From: Diplonema japonicum
Lineage: Eukaryota > Protista > Euglenozoa: Diplonemea
NCBI GenBank assembly: GCA_964019335.1
Contig: OZ025663.1
Location: forward strand, 496,001 to 560,000
Reading direction: 5' to 3'
DNA length: 64,000 bases
Part shown: piece by piece, positions 12,053-62,688 of the stretch
How the letters are laid out: each line of letters opens with the position of its first letter
Position numbering within the stretch: the first letter of the stretch is position 1
Translations under genes and position numbers: made by a program
The notes under the pieces: generated by a model
What the model was told of the DNA's origin: nothing
The model's database searches: none
Seen by the model: the letters and a program-made list of their open reading frames with translations, nothing else

Positions 12053-12627
12053 AATAGCTATTTATTGCCAACAAATAATGAGTCATTATTTAACTTGAGT
12101 TCCCGAATTTTTTGCACGAGGGCCCGCAGGGCCCGAGTGCAAAAAAACGGTAACGAGTGTTAAATAATGGCTCATTTGGCGGCAAGTAAGTCGTTTTATT
12201 TCACTTTTCGTCATTTGAGTCACTCACTCTTCACTGCTTTCACTGCTGTTTTTTTTCACGCAGGTCAGCTTTTTGGGGATTTTCCTAAGGTAATACAGGG
12301 TAGCTTTTTCGTCGTGGCATTTAAAGGGGAAGTAAGGCACTTATTCCCACTTTTAAGGGCTGGAATGGCCTCAGATGGCCAAAAATAGTCAAAATACCCC
12401 CACCCCAAAAAAAGATTTTCAAGGGGTTGGGTGCATTTTTTTCCACGACAAGACCCATTTTTTCACTCTGAAGGGCCATTATTTAACTGCAAAATCTCAT
12501 TATTTAACTAGTTAAATAATGGCGATTTCGCGTTAAATAATGGCCGTTTCGCGTTAAATAATGGCCATTTCGCGTTAAATAATGAGGCCCCTAGTGAGTG
12601 AAGAAAATGACGAAGAGTGAAATAAAA
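12053..12627 (+). mobile_element. Hairpin-ended non-autonomous DNA element, copy A (Crypton-like family)
   Basis: AATAGCTATTTA end and ~140-bp imperfect hairpin centred on GGGCCC-GCA-GGGCCC (12120-12134). 35-bp inverted repeats at 12194-12228 and 12593-12627. Tandem 21-bp GTTAAATAATGGC units. Homologous to 30944-31502. Confidence 0.8.
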
Positions 12628-12735
12628 AAAAAAAAAAAAAAAAAGACTTCCTTCTATTTCTCTCCCCCCCACTTGACTCCTCTTGAACCCCTTCGGAGAT
12701 ATTTTTAAAAAAGAAAAAGGAGAAAAGAAGAAAGG

Positions 12736-31358: not shown

Positions 31359-31502
31359 ATTCTTTTCACAATGAGACCTATTTTCTTTTCACTCCAAAAT
31401 CTCATTATTTAACCAGATAAATTATGGGCAAACAGCGTTAAAATAATGAGCCCCCCCCCCCCCCCCCAGTGAGTGAAGAAAATGACGAAGGGTGAAATAA
31501 AA
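30944..31502 (+). mobile_element. Hairpin-ended DNA element, copy B (same subfamily as A)
   Basis: Colinear with 12053-12627 throughout, with expanded A, G and C runs. Confidence 0.8.
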
Positions 31503-32847
31503 GAAATGAAATTTCAACGTTTCTCTGTTTTCTCTTTTTTTTATTATTTTTTTATTCTACTGGTATAGAAAAAAATGGGGGGGGGACAAGCGGGAAGGTT
31601 GCATAGCGCGATCTGCGTGTGTGCCGAAATTTTTTTCCTTCTTTTTTTTTTCCCCTTCTACAAAAAGAGAAAAAAAAAAAGAAAAATGGGGCGTAAAAAG
31701 AAAAGAATGGGAGAGGGTAAGAAAAAAAAAAAAAAAAAAAAAGAAACGAATGGAATGGAATAAACAAAAGAGAAAAAGAACACACAGACACAAGACTTTG
31801 TGTTCTTATTTTTTTTTATTGTATTCCACCCCCCTTCCCCCCCTCCCTGCTTTATTTTTTTTTTATTCTCTTAGAAACTGGTATCTTCTTTTTTTTTCCT
31901 CTTTTTTTTTCCTCAGTTTGCGGCGTACATGGAAAAAAAGGAAGAGGGGGGACACAGCAGTAAATAGAAAAAGAAAAAAAGGGAAAAAAAAACCAGGGGG
32001 ACCAATTGTTTGGTTTTTTTTTATTATTATGCATAAGGGGAAGAAAAAGACAGGGAAAAACATAAATTAAAAAAAAGACAGTAAAAAAAAAGTGCAACAA
32101 TTGACAGTCTTCTGTTTTTCTTTCCCCCCCTTTTTTTTTCTTTTCTACTCTGCATAAGGTAAAGGCGTATGCCTGGGTGTTTAAGAAGACTTGAGATTTA
32201 CATAACATACAACGCAGAAAAACAAAAAAAAAAAAAAAAAAAGAAATTCTCTTCCTCTTCTCCCTTTTCCCCTTTTTCCTCTTCGGTAGGTTGTTGATTC
32301 TCACGTATCCTCCCCTGAGTGAGTCCAATTTATAGCAGCATAGTGGATAACAGAGGAAGGCAAAGGGGGGTGGACCAAGTGATGGGTCTAACCGTACCTA
32401 CCTAACCTCACAGTTTTAACCTTTTTTTTTTCTTTCTCTTTTGTGTCTTGAAGTTTAAAAGATAGATGGGGGGAAAAAAAAAGTTTTTCTTCTTATTATT
32501 AACCCCTCCCCCCGGACCAGACCAGACACCACCCGTGAGGAGAGGTACCAAATGCTGTTACACAAGCTCTTCTTTTAAAAATAATCACCCCCCCCCCCCC
32601 CCCCCTCCCCCTTGTTTTCTTTTTCTTTTTTTTTTCAAAGTGGGATTTATCTTTTACTGTGATTTTTTTTTTATTTTAAACAAAAGAATCCCCCCCCAAA
32701 AAAAAGATGCCCTAGGGCAAAAAGAAAAAGGGGGAGAAAAACAAATTCAAAATTGCAATGATACCTGTGCGCAAATAGGGTAAAGAAAAAGGGGGGTAAA
32801 AAAAGAAAAAAAGTTTCCAGAGGCTTGGGACTTCTTTTTTTTTTTAA

Positions 32848-47268: not shown

Positions 47269-49308
47269 ATGATACCGCGTGTGAAGTTTCAAGAATGGCA
47301 AAGAGTGCTCCAGAGGAACGTGCCTTGTTCCTGTGTGCTGAGCTTGCTGTCTGACAATGCAAATCTCGCAGTTGTATTTTCCGACGAAGGAAGCGAATTG
47401 TGGAGGTGTGCGGTACGAGCCCCTGCGTGCAAAATGATCATGGAGGGACGGCCTTATATGGCTGCAGCCGACCCGGATTTCAAGATCCTTGCATTTGTAT
47501 TTGAGAACAATCGGGTGGTCGGTATCGATATCAGCACCCAAACGGAGGTCTGGTCCTGTCTATCGGCAAATAATTCAAACGTGTCGTGCATTTCTCTGGG
47601 CGACGGGCCTGCCGTGGCCTACTCCGATCGTACCATTGTCTTTCCAGGGAGGTATGCAACACAGCTTGAGCTCTCAAAGGCTGTCGTTTCCATGGCATGG
47701 ACAAAGGCTACCCTCGCTGTGCAGTACAAAGAGTCTATCGATTTGTACAAACGGGATGGTACTGTTATGAAGCTCATCTCACAGAACCTCACCAACGTAT
47801 GGCTCACCAAACCCGGAGAAGGCGAACTCGAACCCAACGTCTGGCCGAACCACGGTCACCGCCTCACTTTCTCCACGGAAGGCGAGTACCTCTGCGCCCC
47901 TGTCGTCGACGGCGTCAAGGTCTACAAAACCAACCCTTCCAGAACCGCTCTCCAGGAGTTCCGCTCCAGCATGTTCCGCGACCCCATTCAAAGCGGCCGC
48001 TTCTTCCCCAAAACACCTACCAAGCTCGTACTCATATCCATGTTTCCTGCGAAGATCATTTTATGGGACCTCGCGCACGACACCGTCCTGTGGGCCATGG
48101 GTCTCTGCCATGCTACGATGCACGACTGCTGCATCACCGGCTCGACTGTGTTCGCCGTCACGGGACTGGGGATCTTCACCATCAAAAGCCTGCGGCCGCA
48201 AAGTAAAACATTGGAGCCTGCAATGAAGAAGCAGAGGCTCACAGCATCGCAGGACAGCGAGCTTGTCATCGTTACTCCCAACCCTCCAAAAAAATCTACC
48301 CCGAGGCCCCCTGCCTCCGTCGAGACTCCTGTCGTCGTGTCCGAGTCGACCAAGCCTGCTGCCACAACATCTACAACAGCCAAGGCCACGGCCATGGCCA
48401 CAGCCACTGCCACATCACCAGCCTCCTCATCGTTCAGTCCAACAAGTACATCTGTGCGTTCTGCAGTTCCTCGGCTTCGGAATGTATCCTTGGTTCAGCC
48501 GGAAGTTCTCTATCAACCCAAGCCGTGGGGAGCGGGTGAGAAGGCTGAGACAAGACACAGGCCGGCGAGGAACGAGAAAATGCCTTCGGACCCGAAGACC
48601 AAGCCAAAGCTAGCCACAAATGAAAGAGTAATACTGAAGGAGGAACCGTCTAGATCAGCAAGAAGCGAGAAGGCAATGTGCGAACCCACGCTGTCGACGA
48701 ACAATGCAAAGGTGATACCGACAAGAGGGCACGGGAAGTGGGAGCTGATGGCTGCAGGATGGGTTCGGCCGGTGTCCATCTGGTGCAAGGAAGCAGCGTT
48801 GGTGGTGAGCGAAGTCAAGGACGGGGTGATGTGTGTGTGCGCAACACACGCGGCGAAACAGCAAGAAATTGTAGTAGTGAAAGTGGCATGCGGCACTGTG
48901 GTCGTGAAGCTGCTTATAGGACTGGGAATAATGAAACCGACAAGTGTGGCAGTGGGTTGTGGGATGGTGGTGGTCATGGCGAATGATGCCATAGTCGGCA
49001 TCGACATAGTGCAGCGCAAAACAATGTGGCAAGCAGTACCGCCGTTCAAGAAGGGCACTATCGTAGAAGCTACACCCACAGGGTGCGTTGTGGCCAGCAG
49101 CGACAAACAGAGCAAATGGGGTTCTTGCAAGGACATAGGCTACACGTCATGGTTAGATCTATCCCACCCTGAAGGTATGCTAGTACACCACATTTCATAC
49201 ACAACAGATATGCTGTATTTCTCTAAAGCAGAGCACCTCCCTCACTATGCAATGAAGGCTGTAGATGCCCTAGGCGTCGGCACTGTGATAGAAAAGCTCG
49301 TGAAGTAA
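47269..49308 (+). CDS. WD40-like beta-propeller protein (possibly Ctf4/WDHD1- or HIRA-like)
   Basis: 679-aa ORF with RLTFSTEGEYLCAP and KIILWD, a low-complexity linker and a second beta-rich domain. Confidence 0.6.
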   Translation: MIPRVKFQEWQRVLQRNVPCSCVLSLLSDNANLAVVFSDEGSELWRCAVRAPACKMIMEGRPYMAAADPDFKILAFVFENNRVVGIDISTQTEVWSCLSANNSNVSCISLGDGPAVAYSDRTIVFPGRYATQLELSKAVVSMAWTKATLAVQYKESIDLYKRDGTVMKLISQNLTNVWLTKPGEGELEPNVWPNHGHRLTFSTEGEYLCAPVVDGVKVYKTNPSRTALQEFRSSMFRDPIQSGRFFPKTPTKLVLISMFPAKIILWDLAHDTVLWAMGLCHATMHDCCITGSTVFAVTGLGIFTIKSLRPQSKTLEPAMKKQRLTASQDSELVIVTPNPPKKSTPRPPASVETPVVVSESTKPAATTSTTAKATAMATATATSPASSSFSPTSTSVRSAVPRLRNVSLVQPEVLYQPKPWGAGEKAETRHRPARNEKMPSDPKTKPKLATNERVILKEEPSRSARSEKAMCEPTLSTNNAKVIPTRGHGKWELMAAGWVRPVSIWCKEAALVVSEVKDGVMCVCATHAAKQQEIVVVKVACGTVVVKLLIGLGIMKPTSVAVGCGMVVVMANDAIVGIDIVQRKTMWQAVPPFKKGTIVEATPTGCVVASSDKQSKWGSCKDIGYTSWLDLSHPEGMLVHHISYTTDMLYFSKAEHLPHYAMKAVDALGVGTVIEKLVK

Positions 49309-49437
49309 TGTATACCTGTTTGCGGCACTTCTGTATCCCCTTTCTTTTTCTTTTCTACAGCGTAGATTATCGTGCCCTGTTCTTTTTTAGGGAACACTGG
49401 GTTTCGGGTTTTTAACATCAAAAGTCGCGAAGACAAA

Positions 49438-51867
49438 ATGCCACCAAAAGGCCGAGGTGGAGCCTCCACGAGGGCGGTTCCTGGGCAGGCTCCTCCAAAA
49501 GGGGGGTCTGGCGAATCCACCAGGCAAGGAGAAGCGGTGGGCGACCTAGCCGGCAGGCTGGGGATGGGCTGGAAGGTCCAAGACGTGGGGAGGAGGCCGG
49601 GAGACTGCTTGTATGAGGCAGCCTCATACGCGGTGCACGGAGCGCGAGACGGGGCCGCTGCCCTAAGGGAGGCAGTGGCGGCAGACCTGGCGACGAAGGA
49701 CTTCTCGTCCTTCATGATTGGAGAGGACCCGGAGGGGGCGTGGAAGGAGTACCAGCGGCTGGTGGCTCTTCCGGGGACGTGGGGAGACCGGATGGCGGTG
49801 AATGCCCTGGCGCGAGCCATGGGCCGCGTGATCTGTGTGTACGCGGTCCGGGACGACCGCCTGGTGTGCACCACCTCCAGGCCGGTGGGTGGGATGGTGA
49901 CCACACAGGAGCTGTGGCTAGGGTATGTGAGAGACCACTACGTGTGTCTCAGCAGGGAGGAAGGAGCGAGGAAGCCGGACGCAGATGAGTATGAGCCGAG
50001 GCCGAGATACCCCATTCCTCTACGCAGCGTGGCCAAGGGTGGTTCGAAGCCCGAGAAGAAAGAAGTACGCAAGCCCGTCGAGGGGTGCCTCGATGGAGAT
50101 GAGTGGCAGGTCCACGTGCAGGAGTGGCAGGGCCCGGAGACGGTGCAAGAGCGCGCGGTGTACCTGGTGCCGAAGGGTGATGAGCGACAGGCGGCAGAGT
50201 GGCTGAAGGGGACGGCAGCGGCGACGGTGGTTTCCTGGGGACGATTACCCTACTTCTGCGGTAAGATGGCGGAGGTCCTCCTGGTGACAAACGAGGGACG
50301 TGGCAAGACGTACAGGCGCCTGTACGTGACGGCAAGGCACGGCGACCCGGCAATGCCCACTAGCGAGACTGTCGAGGACATGGAGGAGACGGAGGAGAAG
50401 GAGCCTGAGCCCACGTGCACTGCAGAGCTTTTTCTCCTGGCGCAGACGACGCAGGACGCCGAGAAAGCTCGGCCGCGTCTGCTGGCATGGCTGAGAGAAC
50501 GCGCAGGGAGGTACCTCGCTAAGAGGGGCAGAAAGAAGGACGGTATTTTAGAAATACCGATCACGGTAAAGAAGGAAGACGTTAAGGCGATCCTAACGCG
50601 CAGCGGAGAGGACGGCGTTTTCGTCAGGCAGCCTTGGGAGGCGCGTGACCTGCTGCCAGTGATCTGGCTGGAGAACACGGCTCTGAAGGTTGCCCTGAAG
50701 ATGAAGAATGACATCGGCGGATGGGGTTTGACCCTGAAAAAATCGAGCAAGACTGTCACGTACGGCGTTCGGGTGCCAAAGGACGGACTCAACACCGCAA
50801 GGCAGATCCTCAAGGACCGCCATGCAGATCTGAAGACAACAGCGACCGCCGTAGACCTGCTAGAGGGTGCCCACTACGAGGTGCAGGGAGTCCCGGTAGC
50901 AATGAACGGGCTGGAGCTCGAGGGCAAGCTGAGCCGTTCCGGGTGGCCAGCAACGGTGAGGAAGAAGCTGCACAGGCATGGTGGCAGACAGACGTGGGTG
51001 GTGACTGCGACGACCGAACCAAGGAGCTTGGTGTTGACAGTCCAGGGAGTGAGGTGGGCCATCCAGCCGATGGAAGGGGACCTGCTGAGGGTGGGCAAGA
51101 ATAAGAAGAAGAAGGAGGTGAAGAACACGCCGGTCTTCACCTTGCCGCCGAACGCCGTGTGGGGAAGACAAGCTGGGCCAGCACCGAATCCAACTGCAGC
51201 ACCCCAACCGGGAGTTCAACCTCAACCACAAGCGACCGAGACACAGCAGCCTGGGCAAGCGCAGCAGTCTGGGCAGTCGACGCATTTCTGCAAACCGCAG
51301 ACGACACCGGTGATGCAGGCGCCGGCGTCGGCACCGCCATCTGCGACCTCCGGTACCGCATCCACCGACCAGTTCGTGGAATGGGCGCGAAGGATGGAAC
51401 TGGAGAACGAACAGGAGAGGAAGACCATGGAGGCCCGGCTCGTCGACATGGAGAGGAAGAACGCGTCGACGGCCAACCTGTTGATGTCCGTGCAACAGAA
51501 CGTGCAAACGCTGAGCGAGCAGATGGGAGTGATGGCTGCACGTCTGGAGCAATTGGACGTGATTGCTTCTGCGGTGAACAACCTCGCACAGGCGGTGGGC
51601 TCAATCCAAAAGGAGATGCAGGCACAGGCGAAAGCGGCAAGGAAGACAGGCGGGAAGAGGAAGTGCGAGGACGAGCCGGGCAACAAGAAAGCGGCCTCAG
51701 GTGCCCTTGTCCCCACCGCTGGAATAGGCAGGGAGATGACGCCGATGATCATGCCCAACAGCACCCCCCTTTGTGCCGCGGCAGCTGGCGGGACACCTGT
51801 GCAGCAGCAGCTAACCCCGATGGTCGCCCCCCTGGCTGTCCAGGACATCGACACCGAGTTCAATTGA
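49438..51867 (+). CDS. Retrotransposon ORF1 with N-terminal OTU cysteine protease domain and C-terminal coiled coil
   Basis: PGDCLYEAAS...LREAVA...GTWGDRMAVNALARAMGRVICVY...LWLGYVRDHY (OTU Cys and His boxes). Confidence 0.85.
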   Translation: MPPKGRGGASTRAVPGQAPPKGGSGESTRQGEAVGDLAGRLGMGWKVQDVGRRPGDCLYEAASYAVHGARDGAAALREAVAADLATKDFSSFMIGEDPEGAWKEYQRLVALPGTWGDRMAVNALARAMGRVICVYAVRDDRLVCTTSRPVGGMVTTQELWLGYVRDHYVCLSREEGARKPDADEYEPRPRYPIPLRSVAKGGSKPEKKEVRKPVEGCLDGDEWQVHVQEWQGPETVQERAVYLVPKGDERQAAEWLKGTAAATVVSWGRLPYFCGKMAEVLLVTNEGRGKTYRRLYVTARHGDPAMPTSETVEDMEETEEKEPEPTCTAELFLLAQTTQDAEKARPRLLAWLRERAGRYLAKRGRKKDGILEIPITVKKEDVKAILTRSGEDGVFVRQPWEARDLLPVIWLENTALKVALKMKNDIGGWGLTLKKSSKTVTYGVRVPKDGLNTARQILKDRHADLKTTATAVDLLEGAHYEVQGVPVAMNGLELEGKLSRSGWPATVRKKLHRHGGRQTWVVTATTEPRSLVLTVQGVRWAIQPMEGDLLRVGKNKKKKEVKNTPVFTLPPNAVWGRQAGPAPNPTAAPQPGVQPQPQATETQQPGQAQQSGQSTHFCKPQTTPVMQAPASAPPSATSGTASTDQFVEWARRMELENEQERKTMEARLVDMERKNASTANLLMSVQQNVQTLSEQMGVMAARLEQLDVIASAVNNLAQAVGSIQKEMQAQAKAARKTGGKRKCEDEPGNKKAASGALVPTAGIGREMTPMIMPNSTPLCAAAAGGTPVQQQLTPMVAPLAVQDIDTEFN

Positions 51868-54800
51868 AGTGCGGACTGGGACGTCCGGAGGGACGTCCAG
51901 TCGGGTGGCGCCAGGGACCCCGATTCGCTCATAATCACCACACTCAATGTGGGGTCCCTGAGCAACAAGGTTGACGAGGTCCTGGCTATGGGGAGCGACG
52001 TGACATGCCTGCAGGAAGTGAAGCTGACGGAGCACGGTCAGGAGATGGTTGGGAGACACGTCGAGGACGACGGTAGGTATCGCGCGTTGTGGGGGAGCCC
52101 GCAACCAGGCATCGTGGTCGATGGACTCGCGTCTCCTGATAAGGCGAAGAGGGGCGGGGTGGGTCTGCTGGTGCAGCGACGCCGACCTGCTCTGGTAAAA
52201 GATACGGCAGGAAGAGCTGACGACAACAGGTGGGTACACTCGATGATCAACCTAGATGGTCGAGATATGTGGTTACACCTGATCGTAGTCTACTGTCACT
52301 CGGGCGGTCACGGCAAGCACCAGCGGGAGGCTCTGCTGGATAAGGTCCTGAACAAGATGAGATGCGTCCTCGGTGACGTACCGATCATCGTGGCAGGCGA
52401 TTTCAACACCGCGGTGTCACAGTCGGGAGTGCTACAACAGGCGGTGGGGAGCGATTGGGTGGATGCTGCTATGCTGCAAGCCGAGAGGGATGGCGTGGAA
52501 CCATGCCACACCTTTGCCAGGCAGGCCACCAACACGAAGACGCGTATCGACTACGTTCTGCTGAACCCGATCGCGGCGGCAGGCCTACAGAAGGTGTGGG
52601 TACACGACGCAGTCTACACCAACGAGCACCGCTGCCTCTCAATCCAGCTCCGGATCCCGGCCCTCAAGTGCATGACGAGGAAATACTTCGTCCCGAGGGA
52701 GTTGCCGATGGAAGCTGCTGATGGTGACCGAGTTGCTGAGCTGCTACAGGTCGGGGGATTTGCGCAGAAGCTGGGCGACGGCGACATTGACGATGCGTAT
52801 AGTACGTTAGCGTGCGTTTCGGAGGAATGCTGCATCGGGGACCTGCCAGCGGTGAGACGGAGGGCCTACGTCGGGAGAAGCGTGGCGCGACAACCAAAGG
52901 AGAAGTGCCTGTCGGCGAAATCTGTGGTTGAGGCGACAGGTGCGGCAGTGGGCTGGCAGAAGTGCATCGCCGAGGTGAAGCGGAAAGTCTCGCACATCCT
53001 TGCGGGAGTCCAAGATTTGCTCGACAGGGGACTAGCAAGCAACATGCCGGAGCAGCTGCTGAGGACTTGGGCGAATGCTATAAAGGTGTTAGCGAAGCTC
53101 CCGCAGCTTCCGAGATGCGAGGTGGGTCTGATGAAGGACAATTTTGAAACGATTATCATCAAACTTCAACGCCTAGACGACGACCTGTCCGCTCTGGCGC
53201 GAGTGATCGCAAAGGACGCGAGGGTCGAGCGTGAAAGGAAGTATGAAGAGAGGATCAACACCCACTTCAAGGAGGAACGGAAGAGGGTGACCGCCTTCGT
53301 GAAGGGCACAACGGCATCAGCAACGCAGGCAGTGGAAGGCGACGGGGTTCTCACGGCAGATCTTGAAGAGATGGACAAGATGATGCACAAGGAGTGGGAC
53401 CCTATTTTTCAGCTGTACGGTGGGGATCGAGGAGAGCCGCAGTACAACGCCTTTAGAACGAGGTACAGGGAGTACATCGTGTCGCAGAAGATGGAACTTC
53501 GACCACTTACAGGAGAGGATCTGAGGGCGGTGTTGGCCAAGAAGTCAACGAGAACGGCTCCAGGGGTGGATGGATGGAGGATGGCGGAACTGCGTGCCAT
53601 GCCGGTAGTACTGCTGGATGCTTGGGCCGAGCTGTTCAACGCAGTCGAGACGACAGGGAAGTGGCCGAAAGCACTCCTGACAGCGCTGGTGACGTTGATC
53701 CCGAAGGGTGGCGAGAGGACTCCTCTGAACCATCGGCCGATCACAGTCACGAGCGCGGTCTATCGGCTGTGGGCATGTGCGAGGCTGCGTGACATCACGC
53801 TGTGGCAAGAGAAGTGGATCGACGACTCTCAGCATGGTTTCAGACCGAAGAGAGGCACGGATAGCATTCTGATGGAGCTCAGTACACAGCTCGAAGAGGC
53901 GCTGTTGACAGGCACCCCTCTCAACGGCATTGCGTTGGATTTTGTCAAGTGCTTCGACAGAGTCCCACAGCAGATAGCTTTTGGCCTGATGCAAGATCTC
54001 GGTTTGCACGAGCGGATACTGACCCCCTTGAAAGCTATGTATGCGAACCTGAAGCGGCGATTCCGTTTCCCGACAGGTGTTGGCTCAGAGTTCCGAGTGA
54101 CGAATGGTATCCTGCAAGGGTGCCCCATCTCGGTAATCATGGTGAACGCCTTGGTGTCGGTGATGGTGAAGTGCGTGATGACGGAAGTACCAGGAGCTTG
54201 GTCACTTTCGTACGCGGATGACGTGTACCTCCTGGCGCGTTTAGCGGAGGTCCTGACAAGGGCGACCAACAAGGTGATCGAGTTCGGGGACCGGACAGAG
54301 ATGCGCCTCAACGGAAAGAAGTCGCAGGGATTCTCGACGAAAAACGAGATCGGCCCTAGTTTAGTATGCACCGGTTCCTCGTTCAAGGTAGCTGGGGAGA
54401 TCAAATCACTTGGCGTGAACCTGAGCATGGATGGGAATCACAGGCTGGACAAGCTGGACGCAGCGGAGGGACGCCTGACCCGTCTCGGAGCTTTGCCACT
54501 AGGGTTTGAGAACAAGTCGACGATGTTGACGAGCACTGTGCTACCGTCGTGTCTGTACGGAGCAACGTATGCGGCACCCTCGGACGACCAGCTGAAGAAG
54601 ATGTGTACAGCGGCAGTGGTCTCCCTGTGGGGCCCCCAGTTCGGGATGAGAAACCCCGTGTCTGTACTGAGCGTTCTGCTGCCAGGGCATACGGCACATC
54701 CGCTGTCGAAGGTCATCTACGGAACGATAAACAGCTTGGTCCGGGAGAGCCTGGCCTCTCCGCGTTTGCGGCAGCGTGTTGGTGAGATCATTGGTCTATA

Positions 54801-55986
54801 CCAGGACCGTGATGACGATGAGGTGATGGGTCCGATTGGAGTCCTGCGGAACAGATGGCTCCCCTTTCTGGGGAAGGGATGGTCCTTTGTGGCCGACCTG
54901 CACGGAGATACAGCGGTGGCTCACAAAGTGAGGCAAGCCATCAGACCGGCAGTTGCGAAGAGGCTGATCGAGAAGAGATCAACCTTCGTGGGGATGGAGG
55001 CAGGGGCGTGCCCGTCCACGAACTATTGGTGGAAAAAGCTCCAGGCCCGGAGACCGTTGGTGTCCTTTAGGTTGCGGCGCATCATTAGTGGTGCAGTGTT
55101 CACGACTCACCCGAGGGTGTGGGGGAGAAAATTGGATGGCCCTGGTGTGGAAAACCCAGCATTAGCGTGTGACGTTTGCGACCACCGGTCCCAGACAACG
55201 ACCAGCATGACGGAGCATGCACTGTGGGAGTGCGAGCCGGCAAGGAGTGTGTTGGAAAGCGAGCAATACGCAGAGGTGAAGCGAGAAGGCCTCCCAGCTG
55301 CCACAGCCCTTCACGGGATAGTCCCAAGAGGAGCCGACAAAGCAGGGAAAGAACGTGCCAGGATGGTGCAACAATACCTCCTGAAAGTAGTGACGGTCCG
55401 TGACGCCAGAGCAGCGGAAAAAAGCAAGAGAGTGCTCACCTCCAACCCTTGGGATGAGGTAACGACAGGGAGGCAACATGATGTTCCGACGGAAGCGTTG
55501 CTGAAGGCGAACGGGGCGTCAGGCGCGGTCCTGACCTTTCATCTGAAGAACGTCCTCAAGTGGCTAAGAGGCCTACGATGGTACGATGGTAAGAAGAAAA
55601 CTTCCGTCACTACAATGGAACTCGCCATAGACTATGAGCAGACCACCCGCCGGTCACTCATAGGTCCCCTCGACGATCAGGACCTGCTCACGGAGAAGGC
55701 CGCAAGGATGCGATACATCTTGGGTCGCATCCAGAAATGCTCAGCACGCTGTGGAAGGTCAGCCTTCCCCGCCAACGCCAAATCAAGGGTGCATACCCTT
55801 CGACATCTTGGGGGCCCGACGGCACACGGCTACGACAGGAGACCACTCTTCTCCTCGAGCCAAACCCCCCCCTACCTAGCACGACTCCAAGCAGTGTTTC
55901 TCGCCCAGATGCCGTCCATCTCATCGCGACAAACAGCCACCGCAGGCACCAGACAGCAACCGCAGAACGGTGACCGATTAGTGTGA
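51868..55986 (+). CDS. Retrotransposon ORF2: APE endonuclease, reverse transcriptase, C-terminal zinc finger
   Basis: TLNVGSL, CLQEV, AGDFN, RIDYVL; APGVDG, QHGFR, LDFVKCFDRV, GILQGCPIS, YADD; CDVC...EHALWEC. The frame is open directly from the ORF1 TGA. Confidence 0.95.
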   Translation, partial: SADWDVRRDVQSGGARDPDSLIITTLNVGSLSNKVDEVLAMGSDVTCLQEVKLTEHGQEMVGRHVEDDGRYRALWGSPQPGIVVDGLASPDKAKRGGVGLLVQRRRPALVKDTAGRADDNRWVHSMINLDGRDMWLHLIVVYCHSGGHGKHQREALLDKVLNKMRCVLGDVPIIVAGDFNTAVSQSGVLQQAVGSDWVDAAMLQAERDGVEPCHTFARQATNTKTRIDYVLLNPIAAAGLQKVWVHDAVYTNEHRCLSIQLRIPALKCMTRKYFVPRELPMEAADGDRVAELLQVGGFAQKLGDGDIDDAYSTLACVSEECCIGDLPAVRRRAYVGRSVARQPKEKCLSAKSVVEATGAAVGWQKCIAEVKRKVSHILAGVQDLLDRGLASNMPEQLLRTWANAIKVLAKLPQLPRCEVGLMKDNFETIIIKLQRLDDDLSALARVIAKDARVERERKYEERINTHFKEERKRVTAFVKGTTASATQAVEGDGVLTADLEEMDKMMHKEWDPIFQLYGGDRGEPQYNAFRTRYREYIVSQKMELRPLTGEDLRAVLAKKSTRTAPGVDGWRMAELRAMPVVLLDAWAELFNAVETTGKWPKALLTALVTLIPKGGERTPLNHRPITVTSAVYRLWACARLRDITLWQEKWIDDSQHGFRPKRGTDSILMELSTQLEEALLTGTPLNGIALDFVKCFDRVPQQIAFGLMQDLGLHERILTPLKAMYANLKRRFRFPTGVGSEFRVTNGILQGCPISVIMVNALVSVMVKCVMTEVPGAWSLSYADDVYLLARLAEVLTRATNKVIEFGDRTEMRLNGKKSQGFSTKNEIGPSLVCTGSSFKVAGEIKSLGVNLSMDGNHRLDKLDAAEGRLTRLGALPLGFENKSTMLTSTVLPSCLYGATYAAPSDDQLKKMCTAAVVSLWGPQFGMRNPVSVLSVLLPGHTAHPLSKVIYGTINSLVRESLASPRLRQRVGEIIGLYQDRDDDEVMGPIGVLRNRWLPFLGKGWSFVADLHGDTAVAHKVRQAIRPAVAKRLIEKRSTFVGMEAGACPSTNYWWKKLQARRPLVSFRLRRIISGAVFTTHPRVWGRKLDGPGVENPALACDVCDHRSQTTTSMTEHALWECEPARSVLESEQYAEVKREGLPAATALHGIVPRGADKAGKERARMVQQYLLKVVTVRDARAAEKSKRVLTSNPWDEVTTGRQHDVPTEALLKANGASGAVLTFHLKNVLKWLRGLRWYDGKKKTSVTTMELAIDYEQTTRRSLIGPLDDQDLLTEKAARMRYILGRIQKCSARCGRSAFPANAKSRVHTLRHLGGPTAHGYDRRPLFSSSQTPPYLARLQAVFLAQMPSISSRQTATAGTRQQPQNGDRLV
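51874..51902 (+). promoter_or_regulatory. Candidate stop-codon readthrough stem-loop
   Basis: GACT(G)GGACGTCC-GGAG-GGACGTCCAGTC: 12-bp stem starting 6 nt after TGA 51865-51867. Confidence 0.55.
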
Positions 55987-56050
55987 ATTTCTACCTGAAC
56001 AGTGAGCACCCCCATGCACACTGAAATTTTATCGAGTTTTTTATCCATTC

Positions 56051-56088
<38 letters not shown>

Positions 56089-56417
56089 CTAATGCATAAA
56101 GGACTGGGACTGATGGATCAGTCTAAAAAATAATAAAAAAATAAAATCCTGCCACGGCATTTTCGGTGTGCAGCGCCGCCCCACTTAACGGATCCGAAGG
56201 GCAGGTGGGAATAATACGTTCATACACCCTCAAGCCCCACCCTTGCAATTTTATTTTTGTCGGAATTAAAGTCCAAAATTTCCTTTAGGCCAAAAAACAG
56301 CGGATAAGAAAAAAACCCCCGCGAAAGGGAGGTGGGGAAGAGGAAGGAAGAAAGCAAAAACAAAAAAGGAGGAAAAAAAAAAAAAAAAAAAAAAAAAAAG
56401 AAAACACCCTCCCCCAA

Positions 56418-59400
56418 ATGAAACTGAAGGTGATAAACGCCTCTGACAAGCAAGAAGTGGAAATTGAAAAATCGCTGTTCAAAACAAAGGAAGAGCTGAG
56501 AGAATTGATACGGAATGAGTTCAAAATAGATAGCGGGGCAGAGGTGAGGGTAGTGGATCTAAAGGGCGAAGACGTTGACGAAGAGTACGACGGTGTGTGT
56601 GTGGCCGTGACAGGTGCGATGGGGACGAACGGGGAAGCGTTATTTGATATGGGCGTGGATATCACACCTGACGTCGATCTGTTGATACAAAGCGGAGATG
56701 ACTACGACATGGTGACAGCGATTGCAGAGCTGCTTGACAACTCCATCCAGAACACCACAGGGCAGCAGGAGCGTGATGTTAACGTGACGTTTGCAAGGCC
56801 GTCGCGTATACTGCCTCCCAACAAGATTGTTGTTTTTGACAACGGGCGGGGGATGACCCTCGACGCCCTCAAGAACTGGGCCGTCTTGGGCAAATCCAAC
56901 AAAGACCGCGAACAGTACTCAAACGTCTCGACTACACCCGCCACCCGCCCCAGCCGCCTACTCCGTAAGGAAGGTACCGGTCTCTCCTCCTGGGCCTTCT
57001 CGTGCGACACTCGTGTCTCCGACTACCTCACCTCTGACTTCTCCCGCTACGGAGTGGGAAGCAAGAAAGCTGTTTTCTCTCTTGGTGACACTGTAACTGT
57101 AACCACGCGTGTCAAAGGCTCGCCTTGGGTCAGTGAATGCTCTCTCTCCCGCGACTCCATCAAACAGAACGGCTGGAAAACGACGCTCAAAGCACGTGCC
57201 CCCACCCAACAGGAAGCTGCGAAGTCTTCGTTCACATGCTTCATCATCACAGACCTCAAGCAGACGTACAAAGAAACTTACACCACTGACTACATGGTCA
57301 GCTGGCTAGCGCACCTCTACCATTACTACATCCACGGCCCCAGGGGGAACACTATGCAGTCTGAAGATGCAGATGATGAACTGAAAACCAGCCGCGGTGC
57401 CAGCTTCACGCCAGTGAATATCACTGTCGACGGAGTCAACGTGAAGGGCTGCACCATTGATTCCGAGACGCTGCAGCTGCACAAAGGGACCGAGAAGGTC
57501 ACATTTGACTTCATACTGGGCAGCGATAGGACAAAGCTGTATGAGAACACACCCACATCGCTCATGAGAGCGGCCCCCAAGCGGACCGACGGGCTGACGC
57601 AGGGCGAAGCAGAGGGACAGCCGTCGCAACCTAACCTAACGGCGGAGCCATTGGCGCCTATAATTAAGGTCGTGCTGCAGTACTTTCCCTTCAAAGACGG
57701 TGTGGAGACGATGCCCATCCCCGCAGGCTTTTGCAGCGAGGTGGACGACGAGAAGCTCCCACTGTGCGACAGGAAGCCTGGAATGGAAGTGTTCTGGAAC
57801 GGCCGTCTGCTTCCTCGAGAGTTCATCGAAGTGTGGCCCTTGCTGCGCAACACGCTGAAGAAAGACGATGACATCCCTGCCGCGTGCTTCCGACGTGTGA
57901 AAGGCATGATCTTCCTCGATTCGTCTTTCGAAGTGACTGCGAACAAGCACTGTCTTTGCAGGGAGACGCCCCTTGCAAAGGCGATGCTGCAGTACAACAA
58001 TCGCACGACCAACCAGTCGATCAGGAAGTGGATCCGGTATTGCCACAAGCAGCATGACGAGGAGCTCATTTTCGGCGATATTGACAAAGCGAAGATGAGG
58101 GGCGACGGTACTTTGTACTACAAGTCTGTGAAGGTCACGAACCTGTACATTGAGCACGGCACATATGTACTGTCGAAGCAGCCGACTGGGCGGGGCAAGG
58201 TCATTGGAAAGGTGGTGTCTATCTTCACGAACCACAAGCTGTACGAGACGGCGCACGGTTGCCAGCTGACTCTGCGTGTCTCGTATTCATCTGCAAGCAG
58301 CTCGGGCGACCTGACGGTCCCTGTAGGACTCTTGCAGAAAGTGCTGACCAATGAAGAGGCAGAGGCAGAGATTAAAAAGGCGAAGAGGAGCTATCCAGTG
58401 AAGCTTGTCGTAGAGGGGCTGACGAAGACGATGCCTGCGACGGACGAACCCGAAGGGAACATGAAGGTCACCATGTGCACGGAGGAGAACAAGGTTCTGA
58501 ACAAACCAGGCACGCTGGAAGTGACTGTGGCTGCACTGCCGAACACAGGGGGGAAGGTGATGGAGCCAGTCTTTGTGCAACACGTGTTTAAACCGTTGGG
58601 AAAGAAGAACTACTTCTCGTGCAGCCTGGAGGACTTGAAGGAGTACGCACCTGACTTGTTCACCTTTGCAGGGAAGTACACGTTCCAGTTCAAGTCGTCC
58701 GTCGCGACCATTGCACCGCTGGAGGTCGTCATGAACGTTGTAGCAGACGCGAAGAAGATACAGAGCATCAGCAGCTCATCTGTGATCGCAGCCACTGTGG
58801 ACAAGGAGCTCTCTGTCATCGATCTACACGTGAAGGACCGTTTCGGGAACCCCCTTCCCTACGATCTGTTTGAGAAGAAGAAGCCAAGGATGCAAGTCAC
58901 CACCACGGTAAAGACCCTTACCGTGAACACTGATAACATAACACTGAAGTCCATTTCAGGTGGAATCCGTGTGTCAGGTTTGAAGCTGACCGGCCTTCTT
59001 GGAGCGGAATCATGCTCCCCTACCTCCCTTTTATTCAATTTCAGCAGCAAAGAGTGCGCAGTTGACATTGCGGGAATTTCTCCGGGCAAGGCCTCTGATG
59101 TGAAAGTTTTGATATGTCCCAAGCAAGTTGGATGGAAAGAAGCTTTCAAGGTCGTGTTGTGTCTGCAGGACTCTTATGGCAACCCCACAACTGGTGCTAG
59201 TCAGGACATTGTTTGCGAGCTCAAGCTGGGCGGGAACGCAAAGCTGTCGAAGGTGCAGTCAGCAGATCTGTCTTCGGAGAACACGTTCGTCTTCGATGAC
59301 GTGGCCGTAACACGGCCTCCTAAGCAACCCATGCCCACTGAAGATTTAGAAATTACACTGCAAGCGAACATCTTCTACATCGTAAAGGGCAAACACAAGG

Positions 59401-62400
59401 CCACGTCCCTCTCTACCCCTATGCAGCTCCTCATCAAGCCGCCTAGGTCGTTCCCTCATATCCTGCTTGAAGGACCCGGTATTGTGCACACGAGCCCGTT
59501 GGATACCACAGTGCAGGCTGAGGTTGGCACTGATACCAGTGCTGTCGCCGTGTTCCACAACCCTCCTACTTGGGTAAAGAGTGCCATTGTGAAATGCAGC
59601 TGGGCTGAAGGTGCAGTGCACCGGTTTAAAGTGACGAAGGAGCAAATGTCTCTAGAGCTGCCTGTGATAACCGCCCCCACAAAGGAAAGCAGAGTGTGCC
59701 ATGAGATCATCATCCACAAAAAGGACGACGAGACGGAGAAGATAGAACACAAGCTGAGCATCACATACTCGCAGGGCGCACCTACCAGCATTAAAATAGT
59801 TCAGATCCCGGACAAGGTGCAGCCAGATCAAAACTTCTCCATCCAGTGCAAGGCTGTCGATCGTTTTGAGAATGAGTTGCCTTGCAAGCATCCGGATCTC
59901 AAGAACTGCACGCTGAAACTGGTTATTGTCGATGGGAAGTGCGATCTGCTTGCAGAAGGCGACACCAAGGCCAGAGAGAACACATGGAGCCTTGCTAAGT
60001 TAAAGGTGACCGGAAAGAGCGGCGTTACAAAGTTCAAGATAGTCGCGGAAAGTGCGTCAATCGAGTCTCCGGAGTTCACGTTGGACGTGGTGCCTGGGGA
60101 GCCGTGTGCAATCACTATCGACGGAAAGCAGCGCACGAAGGAAGACCCCTTATGCTTCAACGTGGAGAACATGGGCCTGCTGAAACCTGTTAGGGTGGGT
60201 CTCGTCGACAAGTGGGACAACGAATGTGTCTTGGGAAAACGTAAGATAGTGATGGAGTGCCCCGGTGATGTGAAGCTGCTCCGCACCACCAAACAAGCTG
60301 TCATGTGGGATGGGCGGCTGGGTGTCTTCACTCCCTCGTTCCTAGCAATCTGTAAACCCGGGCAAGGCACCACCTCATCGAATGCCATTCTGAACCTAGA
60401 TGATCTCCCCGACGATATCATCAAAGGCTTCATTAATGTGAACTGCACGCTTGGGCAGCTCCCGTGGGACGTGCGTCTGACGCTGAAGGACAGCACACAT
60501 CTTTGCGACGTTAAGGACAAGGAGTGCCAGCCTGTGAAGGCAGGCACACCCCTTGGTGAGGCTGCGTGCATCGAAGTTCTTTGTGAAAACGGCACACCAT
60601 GCAACAGCATCCCCACAGACAGAGTCGCCCTACACGTCATCTCACAAGCGCTGCATTCACCTGCGACCTTCCCGGGCCCCCCTGAACCTTCTCAAGCCCG
60701 TTCGGGTGGGCAGGCTCCACCAGTAAAGGTCACCTTCAGCGAGCTTGAAAAATTCACTCCAACTGGCTCAGGGGTGTACACTGTCTTTGCCGAGCTTGAC
60801 CTTATGTACCACAAGTACAAGGACCATTTGGAGAAGATCAAGTGCTTGAGGCGCAGGGTGGAAGTGTTCCACTTCACCGTAATACATACAAAACCTACGA
60901 TGATGAAGTGCAAGGTGTTCAAAGAAATACAGGTGAAGAAGAAGAAGAGGAGTGTGAGCAACAGCAGGGGTTCGCCCTGGGCAGACTCGCACCACCTTGG
61001 GGGTGTGGCATCGAATAAGGCTGTGTTCGAGTCCCTTGAAGTAAGGCTGCTGGATGAACATGACAACTTGTGCACCTCGTGCGATGGACCTGTCACACTT
61101 ACCATCCAGCAGTACGCAGACGGACGTGGCGCGACTCCTGCTAAGTTGGCACCCGTTATCGAGGACCCACCTTCTGTTGTGTTTGCCAACGGGGAGGCAA
61201 ACATTCCTGAGCTGAAGCTGGGACCAAACAAACGCGGCGCACCCGAAGGCTCGTACTGTTTGCACATAGCGCACAAAGGAGTGCAGCCCATCATGCTGCC
61301 CTTCCAGTTCACCGATGACGCCATTAAGGAGAAACAGCTCGCGGAACTAGGTGAGAAGATCAGGGAGTGGGTTGCCTACCAGCATTACCTGGAAAAGAAG
61401 CTGAAGAAGTTCAGCATGTTCAGAGCAGAGCGCGACGAGATAGAAGGTATGCCGACACAACGCAGCAACACGCACAGCGAAATGGGACTCGCGCATGAAG
61501 GAGGTCCAGGACGAGATGCTACGCACCAAGAAGTTGAAGTCCCCAAACTGGGCGACGTTCGACCCACAAGAACTGGCGAAACAGACCCGAAGCGCGCTCG
61601 GCAAGATGGAGGCAGAAGCAGCGTCAGAAGAGAAGTCGGGTTCAAAGAGGCGAAAGAAATACTTCTTTCAAGATAAGCACAAGGGATTACAGATGATTGC
61701 AGATGCAAAGAACGCGGCAGGGAGTGGTGTGGTGGGGGTGGTGGCGGAGATCGGGTGGTGCAGGGACGAGAGAATCGATGCGACAATCTCGAAGACACTG
61801 GGAAGGTACATGCAGACAGTGGTTCTAGAAAATAGCAAAGCGGTAGTGAAGTGGAAGAAGCAGCTTGCCAACCTCCCATCGAACCAACAGCTCGCACTGC
61901 TTTCGTTGGACAACTTCTCAAAGGTAAGCCTCGACGAGGACGGGAAAGTGGCGTCACTCCCGACACCGAACCCGAAGCCCAAAGGGTGGGTGGGGTATGC
62001 AGTGAACCTCGTGGAGCTGGAGGATAAGAACATCTTTTTGCGACCGGTGTTTTACAACCTGCTGGGGAACAAGGCTGTGTTTGACTCAATCGAGAATGCC
62101 CGATCGTGGCGCCAGTCGCTCTTAAGCAGGGGGAGCAAGGTCCCGCACATCACCTGTCTCGATGGAGAAAAGATGGAACAAAACGGAATTGAATGGGCAG
62201 GACAACAACATGCGGATGCTGGGTTCAGATTCGGTGCGATGCCCGCATGTACGACTGACAAGTACAAGAGCGTCCAAAGGCTGCACAACTTGCTAGAGAC
62301 GTATGCTGAGCTGCAGGTGGAGAGGAAGGAGGAAAAGGCAAAGAGAGCGTCTGTTGATCCCAAAGGGGAAGAACCACAACTGCGAGCCAAGCTTGCAGAG

Positions 62401-62688
62401 GTTTGCACCATGATTAAAGGCATGAACAAGCTAATGGACACACCGATAGAAAAGGTCACTACATCTGGAATCGAAACGTTCATGAATGAAGCGATTCCCC
62501 AAACCTCGCAAGCACCGCAAGTCTCCGGTAAGAAGCGTCGTGCACCTTCTCCTTCCTTTGCGGACTCTGAGTCCGAACCTTCGGACACAATTCAGGACGC
62601 TGACGATCCTGTCCTCATACAACCCAGAGACCCCCTCCCGTCTCAAACTGTCCCAGTCAGCAGGCACAAGAAGAAGAAGCGAAATTGA
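56418..62688 (+). CDS. SMCHD1: SMCHD1/GMI1-like protein (GHKL ATPase, long beta-rich region, SMC hinge), ~2079 aa; intron 61447-61477
   Basis: AIAELLDNS, DNGRGM, YGVGSKKAVF, FWNGRLLP; hinge GVVGVVAEIG...GYAVNLV...VFYNLLG...CLDG. A 31-nt GTATG..CAG intron joins the two ORFs in frame. Confidence 0.88.

Follow-up and report, generated by a model that had tools for sequence, protein, structure and literature searches.

A 64,000-nt stretch of the Diplonema japonicum genome (hereafter the window; GenBank assembly GCA_964019335.1, contig OZ025663.1, positions 496,001 to 560,000 of the forward strand) carries a multi-copy, intact diplonemid long interspersed nuclear element (LINE) of the apurinic/apyrimidinic endonuclease (APE) type, whose two open reading frames (ORFs) lie in one frame and are separated by a single UGA. 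The stop is fixed among the copies, the ORF2 frame lacks an AUG ahead of its endonuclease core, and strand 1 of the endonuclease lies upstream of the first Met. A strong hairpin is predicted a few nts after the stop. We lean towards a reading in which occasional readthrough of the UGA, helped by this putative hairpin, supplies the endonuclease-reverse transcriptase of the element; that the structure brings about readthrough is inferred.

The junction between ORF1 and ORF2

Translation of positions 49438-55986 on the forward strand gave a frame with exactly one internal stop, TGA 51865-51867, so that 809 aa of ORF1 are followed by the stop, 1372 aa of the ORF2 frame and a final stop (Table 1). 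This confirms the claim of an earlier note on this DNA that both ORFs share one frame across the TGA. Copies of the element were examined through contigs of four public runs (X1, X4, X10 and X14) placed on the window. In X1, which may be the source of the window, one 731-nt contig spans 51336-52066 with 0 differences and a depth of 181, compared to 14 on the flank; in X4, the junction bins reach 9-14 times the flank depth. As the depth is well above that of the flank, the family is multi-copy, although depth gives no exact copy number. In X10, which comes from another study, no variant above 1% is listed for 51857-51931, and one-letter variants among the pieces listed stand at 0.2-0.3%. The UGA is common to the copies and no private mutation (X1 and X10). 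Both an assembly error and a private nonsense change, the latter considered in the earlier note, were ruled out for these two runs by the unchanged contig in X1 and the variant listing in X10. X14 carries another organism label and has a low depth; it appears to be without an AUG at 51901, since its contig lists no change over 51887-51931. A genetic-code artefact was likewise ruled out: TGA is an ordinary stop in the host, where it ends nine of 17 long ORFs and is mostly followed by non-coding tracts. These long ORFs resemble host genes, lie on one strand and have T- and A-rich spacers between them, in line with a diplonemid host.

Past the stop and a short spacer, the RNA is predicted to fold into the hairpin listed in Table 1; the 12 bp that the earlier note had read 6 nt after the TGA were recovered as 12 predicted pairs with a bulged G. 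The fold reaches -20 kcal/mol (z -4.2), none of 200 shuffles being as good, and its pairs hold with probabilities of 0.74-1.0 across four sequence contexts (93-501 nt); in wider windows the z scores are modest (-0.7 to -2.1). Among the 6520 windows of 30 nt in the element it is the most stable (-21.7 against a mean of -5.6, standard deviation 2.9), and it ranks second when windows of 45 nt are used. When sites that follow a stop triplet were compared (173 in the element, 465 in six host ORFs), this one ranked first, and one of 1500 shuffles matched it. No pseudoknot partner for the loop was found within 98 nt, and an Rfam scan of the element returned two weak unrelated matches.

The first in-frame ATG after the stop is at 51988 and encodes Met41, codon 41 of the ORF2 frame; the only other ATG within 51868-51990, at 51947, is out of frame. 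A structural model of the endonuclease (pLDDT 72, 8 aligned rows) places strand 1 at residues 21-27 (51928-51948), which bears out the earlier statement that no in-frame ATG precedes the first APE strand. The best fold match of this model is the L1 endonuclease (Z 22.1, root mean square deviation 2.9, 214 aligned residues), model residue 14 aligning with L1 residue 3. Asn27, invariant in 8 of 8 aligned rows, also precedes Met41. A start at Met41 would therefore cut away part of the endonuclease core. Ahead of Met41, seven differences within codons 24-40 are listed for a sister family described below, and every one is silent, which argues that these codons are kept as protein. A single-sequence fold of the read-through junction gave a pLDDT of 31, was meaningless and was discarded.

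A separate RNA for ORF2 could arise by trans-splicing, from an internal transcription start or by processing at the junction, the hairpin then serving RNA processing or packaging; we consider this hardly probable. Diplonemid mRNAs are trans-spliced (PMC10161547), weak promoter activity has been reported at the junction of the Candida albicans element Tca2 (PMC7175516), and an AG is present at 51899-51900. However, no pyrimidine-rich AG that could act as a splice acceptor was found between 51858 and 51978, the AGs there being preceded by 10-14 pyrimidines (3-5 T) per 25 nt compared to 23 at 49360, ahead of ORF1, and a separate RNA would still be without an AUG before strand 1.

In the mechanism that we propose, the RNA of the element would be trans-spliced ahead of ORF1, and most ribosomes would terminate at the UGA and release the ORF1 protein (ORF1p). 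When the UGA occupies the A site, the apparently conserved stem core, which begins 12 nt after the stop, would stand at the mRNA entry channel and slow termination. In a small fraction of ribosomes, a near-cognate tRNA would then insert an amino acid at the UGA. The product would be an ORF1-ORF2 fusion of 2182 aa, and the ORF2 protein (ORF2p) would be kept far scarcer than ORF1p.

Sister families and the start of ORF2

A second family in X1 (depth 264) aligns with the window from 51903 onward and is identified with the relative P0001 by 11 of 11 variant codons. Of the 30 letters that precede 51903 in this family, 13 are not those of the window. This stretch folds with the same loop and closing pairs and with an outer stem of its own (-11 kcal/mol, z -3.1, 0 of 200 shuffles as good), the last two possible pairs falling outside the 30 nt that were folded. 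The inner stem (51879-51898) is in the same register in both families, whilst the window's bulge shifts the outer stem by one position; a two-sequence consensus fold retains six pairs, one of them compensatory. The sister stretch is open in the ORF2 frame and keeps the residues D-(V/I)-R-R-D-(V/I), the openness being a weak sign, as twelve open codons are expected by chance with a probability of 0.5-0.76. Combined, these comparisons are suggestive of conservation of the putative hairpin between the families.

The sister family has an AUG where the window has TCG at 51901. The two triplets are two letters apart and lie inside the re-paired stem, so the missing AUG is not one recent point loss. 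This re-paired two-letter difference, together with the silent-only differences upstream of Met41, speaks against decay or a recent accident. In the sister stretch, the in-frame AUG is base-paired in the 3' arm; the first AUG after the junction is out of frame and is paired in the 5' arm. Readthrough may have replaced reinitiation at an AUG in the lineage of the window family only, sister families keeping an AUG at the usual LINE start. Gly-Gly-Ala (51904-51912) is kept at the ORF2 N-terminus in three families.

ORF1 relatives bear on the position of the stop. A HMMER search with ORF1 gave 28 proteins at E up to 0.001, of which 11 were read together with 10 further cluster members. P0015 matches the C-terminal part of ORF1 with 47% identity over 135 aa and ends in EFN, as does the ORF1 of the window (last residues DTEFN, then the stop), and the stop position looks conserved for this reason. 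Among 11 D. papillatum cluster members, 10 terminate at a common residue, so a separate ORF1 is the rule in the group. P0019, a distant relative, combines the ORF1-type central domain with the beginning of an endonuclease in a single ORF. No fused protein with ORF1, APE and reverse transcriptase (RT) was present among the three matches of one protein search. Word-indexed searches with ORF1, and with the junction among shorter proteins, gave no matches, although the full HMMER search had found the 28 ORF1 relatives.

A different route to ORF2 is termination followed by reinitiation: ribosomes would stop at the UGA and a few would restart on ORF2, at the AUG in the sister families and at a non-AUG codon (51901 or 51931-51936) in the window family, and the hairpin would hold or throttle the post-termination ribosomes. 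We consider this possible but rather doubtful. It is favoured by the Met that P0001 and P0004 have where LINE ORF2s usually start and by the UGA-A context, as well as by two published cases: translation of human L1 ORF2 is AUG-independent (PMC11485995), and SART1 depends on a structure that lies downstream of the site where its ribosomes stop and restart (PMC5972666). The stand-alone ORF1 relatives with their common end residue fit either route. In contrast, the homologous position in the window is TCG, neither an AUG nor a good near-cognate, and no stop-start overlap reaches the ORF2 frame, ATT 51863 and TTG 51864 being out of frame and closing after 23 and 36 codons. The in-frame AUG of the sister is itself buried and preceded by an out-of-frame AUG, and it is the AUG-less family that has the stronger stem (-20 compared to -11 kcal/mol over the same 30 nt). 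A strong stem right behind the stop fits the stimulators of readthrough and would hinder scanning of the L1 type. A stable hairpin placed in the L1 spacer reportedly blocks ORF2 translation (Alisch 2006), which we count against reinitiation.

Thirdly, the window family might make little or no intact endonuclease, either by starting at Met41 or by leaving ORF2 untranslated, its copies being moved in trans by the ORF2p of a sister family. Met41 is kept in the window, P0001 and P0004, and the last 30 codons of the window and of P0001 are the same in protein, so that the 3' ends may suit either enzyme. We nevertheless regard this explanation as improbable: the ORF2 frame holds 1372 open codons, the differences listed ahead of Met41 are all silent, an enzyme begun at Met41 would lack strand 1, helix 1 and Asn27, and the relative P0003 is without that Met.

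Several observations weigh against readthrough in the window family. Firstly, both closest ORF2 relatives have a Met at the start of ORF2 (M-GGA in P0001 and M-S-GGA in P0004, compared to Q-S-GGA in the window). It sits one to two codons before the common GGA, where L1 ORF2p begins, a coincidence unlikely by chance; its presence in both of the two close relatives argues that the clade uses, or once used, an AUG start. Secondly, the in-frame near-cognate codons ATA 51931 and ATC 51934 lie inside strand 1, and a start at either could give a nearly whole endonuclease, as exonuclease III starts at a position equivalent to residue 21; ATA 51931 reads AGA in one X14 contig. Thirdly, the comparison of the two hairpins has its own weak points. 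The conservation that the earlier note asked for is suggested by the re-paired stem with the same loop, and covariation is not significant for two rows (2 of 12 pairs doubly changed, 126 of 500 shuffles as high, in the ungapped register). In the sister, the outer stem is slipped by one register, perhaps masking a 1-nt indel, and two of the inner pairs are mismatched. The stop of the sister and its frame relation lie just beyond its 30 letters, and P0015 is not tied to the sister family. In X14, the difference counts imply at least two unlisted changes in 51857-51886, which may or may not touch the stop. Lastly, UGA-A is no leaky context here and is found in three of nine host TGA stops, the 6-nt spacer is shorter than the at least 8 nt of viral stimulators, and for Tca2, a predicted readthrough was absent in a reporter (PMC7175516; PMC4700185).

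The earlier note had taken low-frequency readthrough from the layout and had set against it a start codon or a spliced-leader mRNA belonging to ORF2. As to the latter, no pyrimidine-rich acceptor was found near the junction, but P0001 and P0004 do have their own Met ahead of the endonuclease. Readthrough stands as the likeliest route for the window family, and what is established is the layout, which stops short of readthrough itself.

Comparison with known recoding systems

How LINEs translate ORF2 is a long-open question, for which the worked cases are reinitiation, in L1 and SART1, and skipping at a 2A peptide, in L1Tc (PMC5972666). Mammalian L1 and silkworm SART1 resemble the element of the window as two-ORF LINEs with APE and RT, and SART1 uses a downstream structure. 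However, L1 has a 63-nt spacer and an AUG and SART1 an overlapping stop-start, and the window element has neither. L1Tc and other LINEs with a 2A peptide resemble it in being euglenozoan, APE-type and recoded just upstream of the endonuclease (PMC5972666).

The junction translation of the window has no 2A/StopGo motif of the form D(V/I)ExNPGP and has a true stop instead. The relative P0003 from D. ambulator, 37% identical to ORF2, carries the motif DVHPNPGP at residues 93-101, upstream of its endonuclease; we take this motif to be 2A-like. Recoding at this spot thus seems to rely on different devices among related diplonemid LINEs.

Readthrough in a LINE has a precedent, and the earlier note drew too strong a contrast with other LINEs: for the Group 3 non-LTR (long terminal repeat) retrotransposons of Paramecium tetraurelia, in-frame stops were published and readthrough was proposed from sequence (Guerin et al. 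2017, PMC5405496), 12 families being marked 'in-frame stop' in Table S3 of that paper. These elements are like the one in the window in having an ORF2 with APE and RT in the frame of ORF1 across one stop. They differ in belonging to a ciliate clade, in a short ORF1 mostly with a zinc finger and in TAA-type tails, and the accessible parts of the paper mention neither a stimulatory structure nor a test. The accessible parts of PMC5009743 hold no further case of readthrough in a LINE. No experimental readthrough in a LINE was found in the literature, which was surveyed at the level of listings and mostly outside subscription papers.

Among proven stimulators, the distance between the stop and the structure is 6 nt in SEPN1, 8 nt in murine leukaemia virus (MuLV) and 8-9 nt in alphaviruses (PMC3159437). 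In viral stimulators the spacer is at least 8 nt and its shortening impairs readthrough (PMC13517186). Beyond the A-site codon, a further 11-12 nt are covered by the ribosome (PMC13517186), and the stem part common to both families begins there. MuLV gag-pol, alphavirus nsP3/4, Drosophila kelch and SEPN1 share with the element an in-frame stop ahead of a polymerase or an extension, and the known stimulators have in common with it a stem of some 12 pairs, bulged by 1 nt on the 5' side, that lies a few bases past the stop. The junction has the UGA-A of kelch, in which UGA-A is read through (PMC3159437), and the 6-nt spacer of SEPN1. In contrast, the known stimulators were proven by experiment whereas the hairpin of the window is predicted, and viral contexts are mostly UGA-C or UAG. 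None of the leaky hexanucleotide contexts given in the accessible text of PMC3159437 (UGA-CUA, UGA-CGG, CAR-YYA) is present at the junction, which reads UGA-AGU-GCG. Tca2 is similar in its one stop, its purine-rich bases and its predicted downstream structure but is an LTR element (PMC7175516).

Decoding of the UGA as selenocysteine, the hairpin acting like the redefinition element of SEPN1, would agree with the 6-nt spacer. It is very improbable: no match to a selenocysteine insertion sequence was found in 49200-56200 (Rfam, E up to 1; a divergent element could be missed), the 3' untranslated region (UTR) is shorter than 70 nt, and the UGA falls in a linker predicted to be disordered.

What is new here is the putatively conserved stop-adjacent hairpin and the presence of sister families with and without an AUG, the concept of readthrough in LINEs having its precedent. 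The junction would be a candidate for structure-stimulated readthrough in Euglenozoa. It is compact (about 40 nt), and the AUG-bearing and the AUG-less family on a homologous hairpin form a natural control pair, so that one reporter series could separate readthrough from reinitiation.

Layout of the element, its OTU domain and its surroundings

The element belongs to the APE-type LINEs by its endonuclease N-terminal to an RT of the non-LTR type in ORF2, as judged from Pfam, the model and fold matches. The best solved relatives of the RT, among 10 solved matches, are a 1114-aa 'reverse transcriptase-like protein', L1 ORF2p and R2 proteins. The C-terminal CX2CX12HX4C motif of ORF2 is presumably zinc-knuckle-like, judging from LINE anatomy. 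No long terminal repeats were found in the flanks compared, the longest match between 49301-49440 and 55991-56160 being 7 nt and T-rich. A search for a target-site duplication gave T-rich matches of 6-7 nt in the flanks and none that is clear.

Table 1. Coordinates of the element's features within the window
Feature	Positions	Strand	Basis and remarks
Pyrimidine tracts with AG at 49359-49360 and 49389-49390	49335..49390	+	likely trans-splice acceptor(s) 5' of ORF1
ORF1, 809 aa	49438..51867	+	OTU domain, central domain common to related elements, low-complexity stretch
OTU-like cysteine protease domain, aa 55-167	49600..49938	+	Pfam PF02338; Cys57 and His167
Single in-frame UGA between ORF1 and ORF2	51865..51867	+	translation, run contigs; context AAU-UGA-AGU
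ORF2 frame	51868..55986	+	1372 aa; no AUG before codon 41; residues 1-15 predicted disordered
Spacer from stop to stem, 6 nt	51868..51873	+	sequence, fold
Predicted hairpin, 12 pairs, one bulged G	51874..51902	+	GGAG loop at 51887-51890
TCG (Ser12)	51901..51903	+	Met position of the sister family; in relation to the endonuclease fold, approximately the start of human L1 ORF2p
APE-type endonuclease	51928..52650	+	PF03372, E 2.6e-11; ORF2-frame residues 25-234
Reverse transcriptase domain, YADD	53698..54420	+	PF00078, E 3.3e-19; ORF2-frame residues 611-851
C-terminal CX2CX12HX4C motif	55168..55233	+	read from translation; Cys/His positions common to aligned relatives
Short 3' UTR, then 36-T tract	55987..56088	+	sequence; sense strand, no poly-A

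The element's 5' end lies at about 49382-49390, where the repeat depth starts (contig ends and depth step). Of the two AGs just ahead of ORF1, the one ending at 49360 follows 23 pyrimidines in 25 nt (15 T) and the one ending at 49390 follows 18 in 25; judging from their composition, these tracts likely serve as trans-splice acceptor(s). At the other end, the 36-T tract could be a tail or part of the target. Depth climbs toward the 3' end of the element in X1, X4 and X10, and X10 has loose ends at T tracts, 5' of 51786 and 51989. Both features point to copies truncated at the 5' end, which a LINE that has been mobile would leave. The element sits between T-rich tracts (49335-49390 and 56053-56088), and the 5'-truncated junctions in X10 adjoin T tracts too. 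The element likely targets polypyrimidine tracts, which would put copies beside trans-splice acceptors. Over its last 250 nt (55777-56027) the depth in X1 is about 1200 times that of the flank, which would reflect either a great many short 3' fragments or a family with the same end that resembles a short interspersed nuclear element.

All named LINE-like relatives come from Diplonema species, and for D. papillatum many LINE-like ORFs are on record, with no detailed analysis in the accessible text (PMC10161547). Scans of metagenomes found no relatives among 315 stretches and no tblastn hits for 90 pattern loci, and none of three exact proteins of the window was present in the protein collection searched. 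A third relative, roughly single-copy and frameshifted, aligns to the endonuclease (51946-52701; an X1 record with a depth of 15.5) and represents a decayed family.

An OTU domain at the N-terminus of ORF1, which the earlier note had missed, was found by Pfam (PF02338, E 6.9e-07, above the cut-off, ORF1 residues 55-165). Its catalytic Cys is invariant and its His nearly invariant in 18 aligned rows, and relatives in D. japonicum and D. papillatum have the domain at the same place. The C-terminal part of ORF1 is predicted to be coiled-coil-like. OTU domains are known from Ginger1 and Helitron transposons (PMC2836005); those are DNA transposons, whereas here the domain opens the ORF1 of a LINE. 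The element could be imagined as a gag-pol-like LINE, in which its own OTU protease would cut the readthrough polyprotein after Gly-Gly, ahead of the endonuclease. We think this unlikely. What suggests the candidate cleavage step is that Cys57 and His167 are intact, that the linker is predicted to be disordered and that GGA is conserved, if weakly: 19% of tripeptides are identical among the three proteins anyway. If it held, the sister families of one genome would display a switch from restart at an AUG to readthrough on the same hairpin.

Downstream of the element, an SMCHD1-like gene (56289-62688; GHKL ATPase and S5-like domains) appears to be split into two overlapping frames near 61440-61676, either by an assembly indel or by a real frameshift. 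Elsewhere in the window, a 49-nt intergenic stretch occurs twice with 90% identity (12588-12636 and 31463-31511), and an inverted repeat at 2135-2385 has arms of 102 nt that are 89% complementary and lie 47 nt apart.

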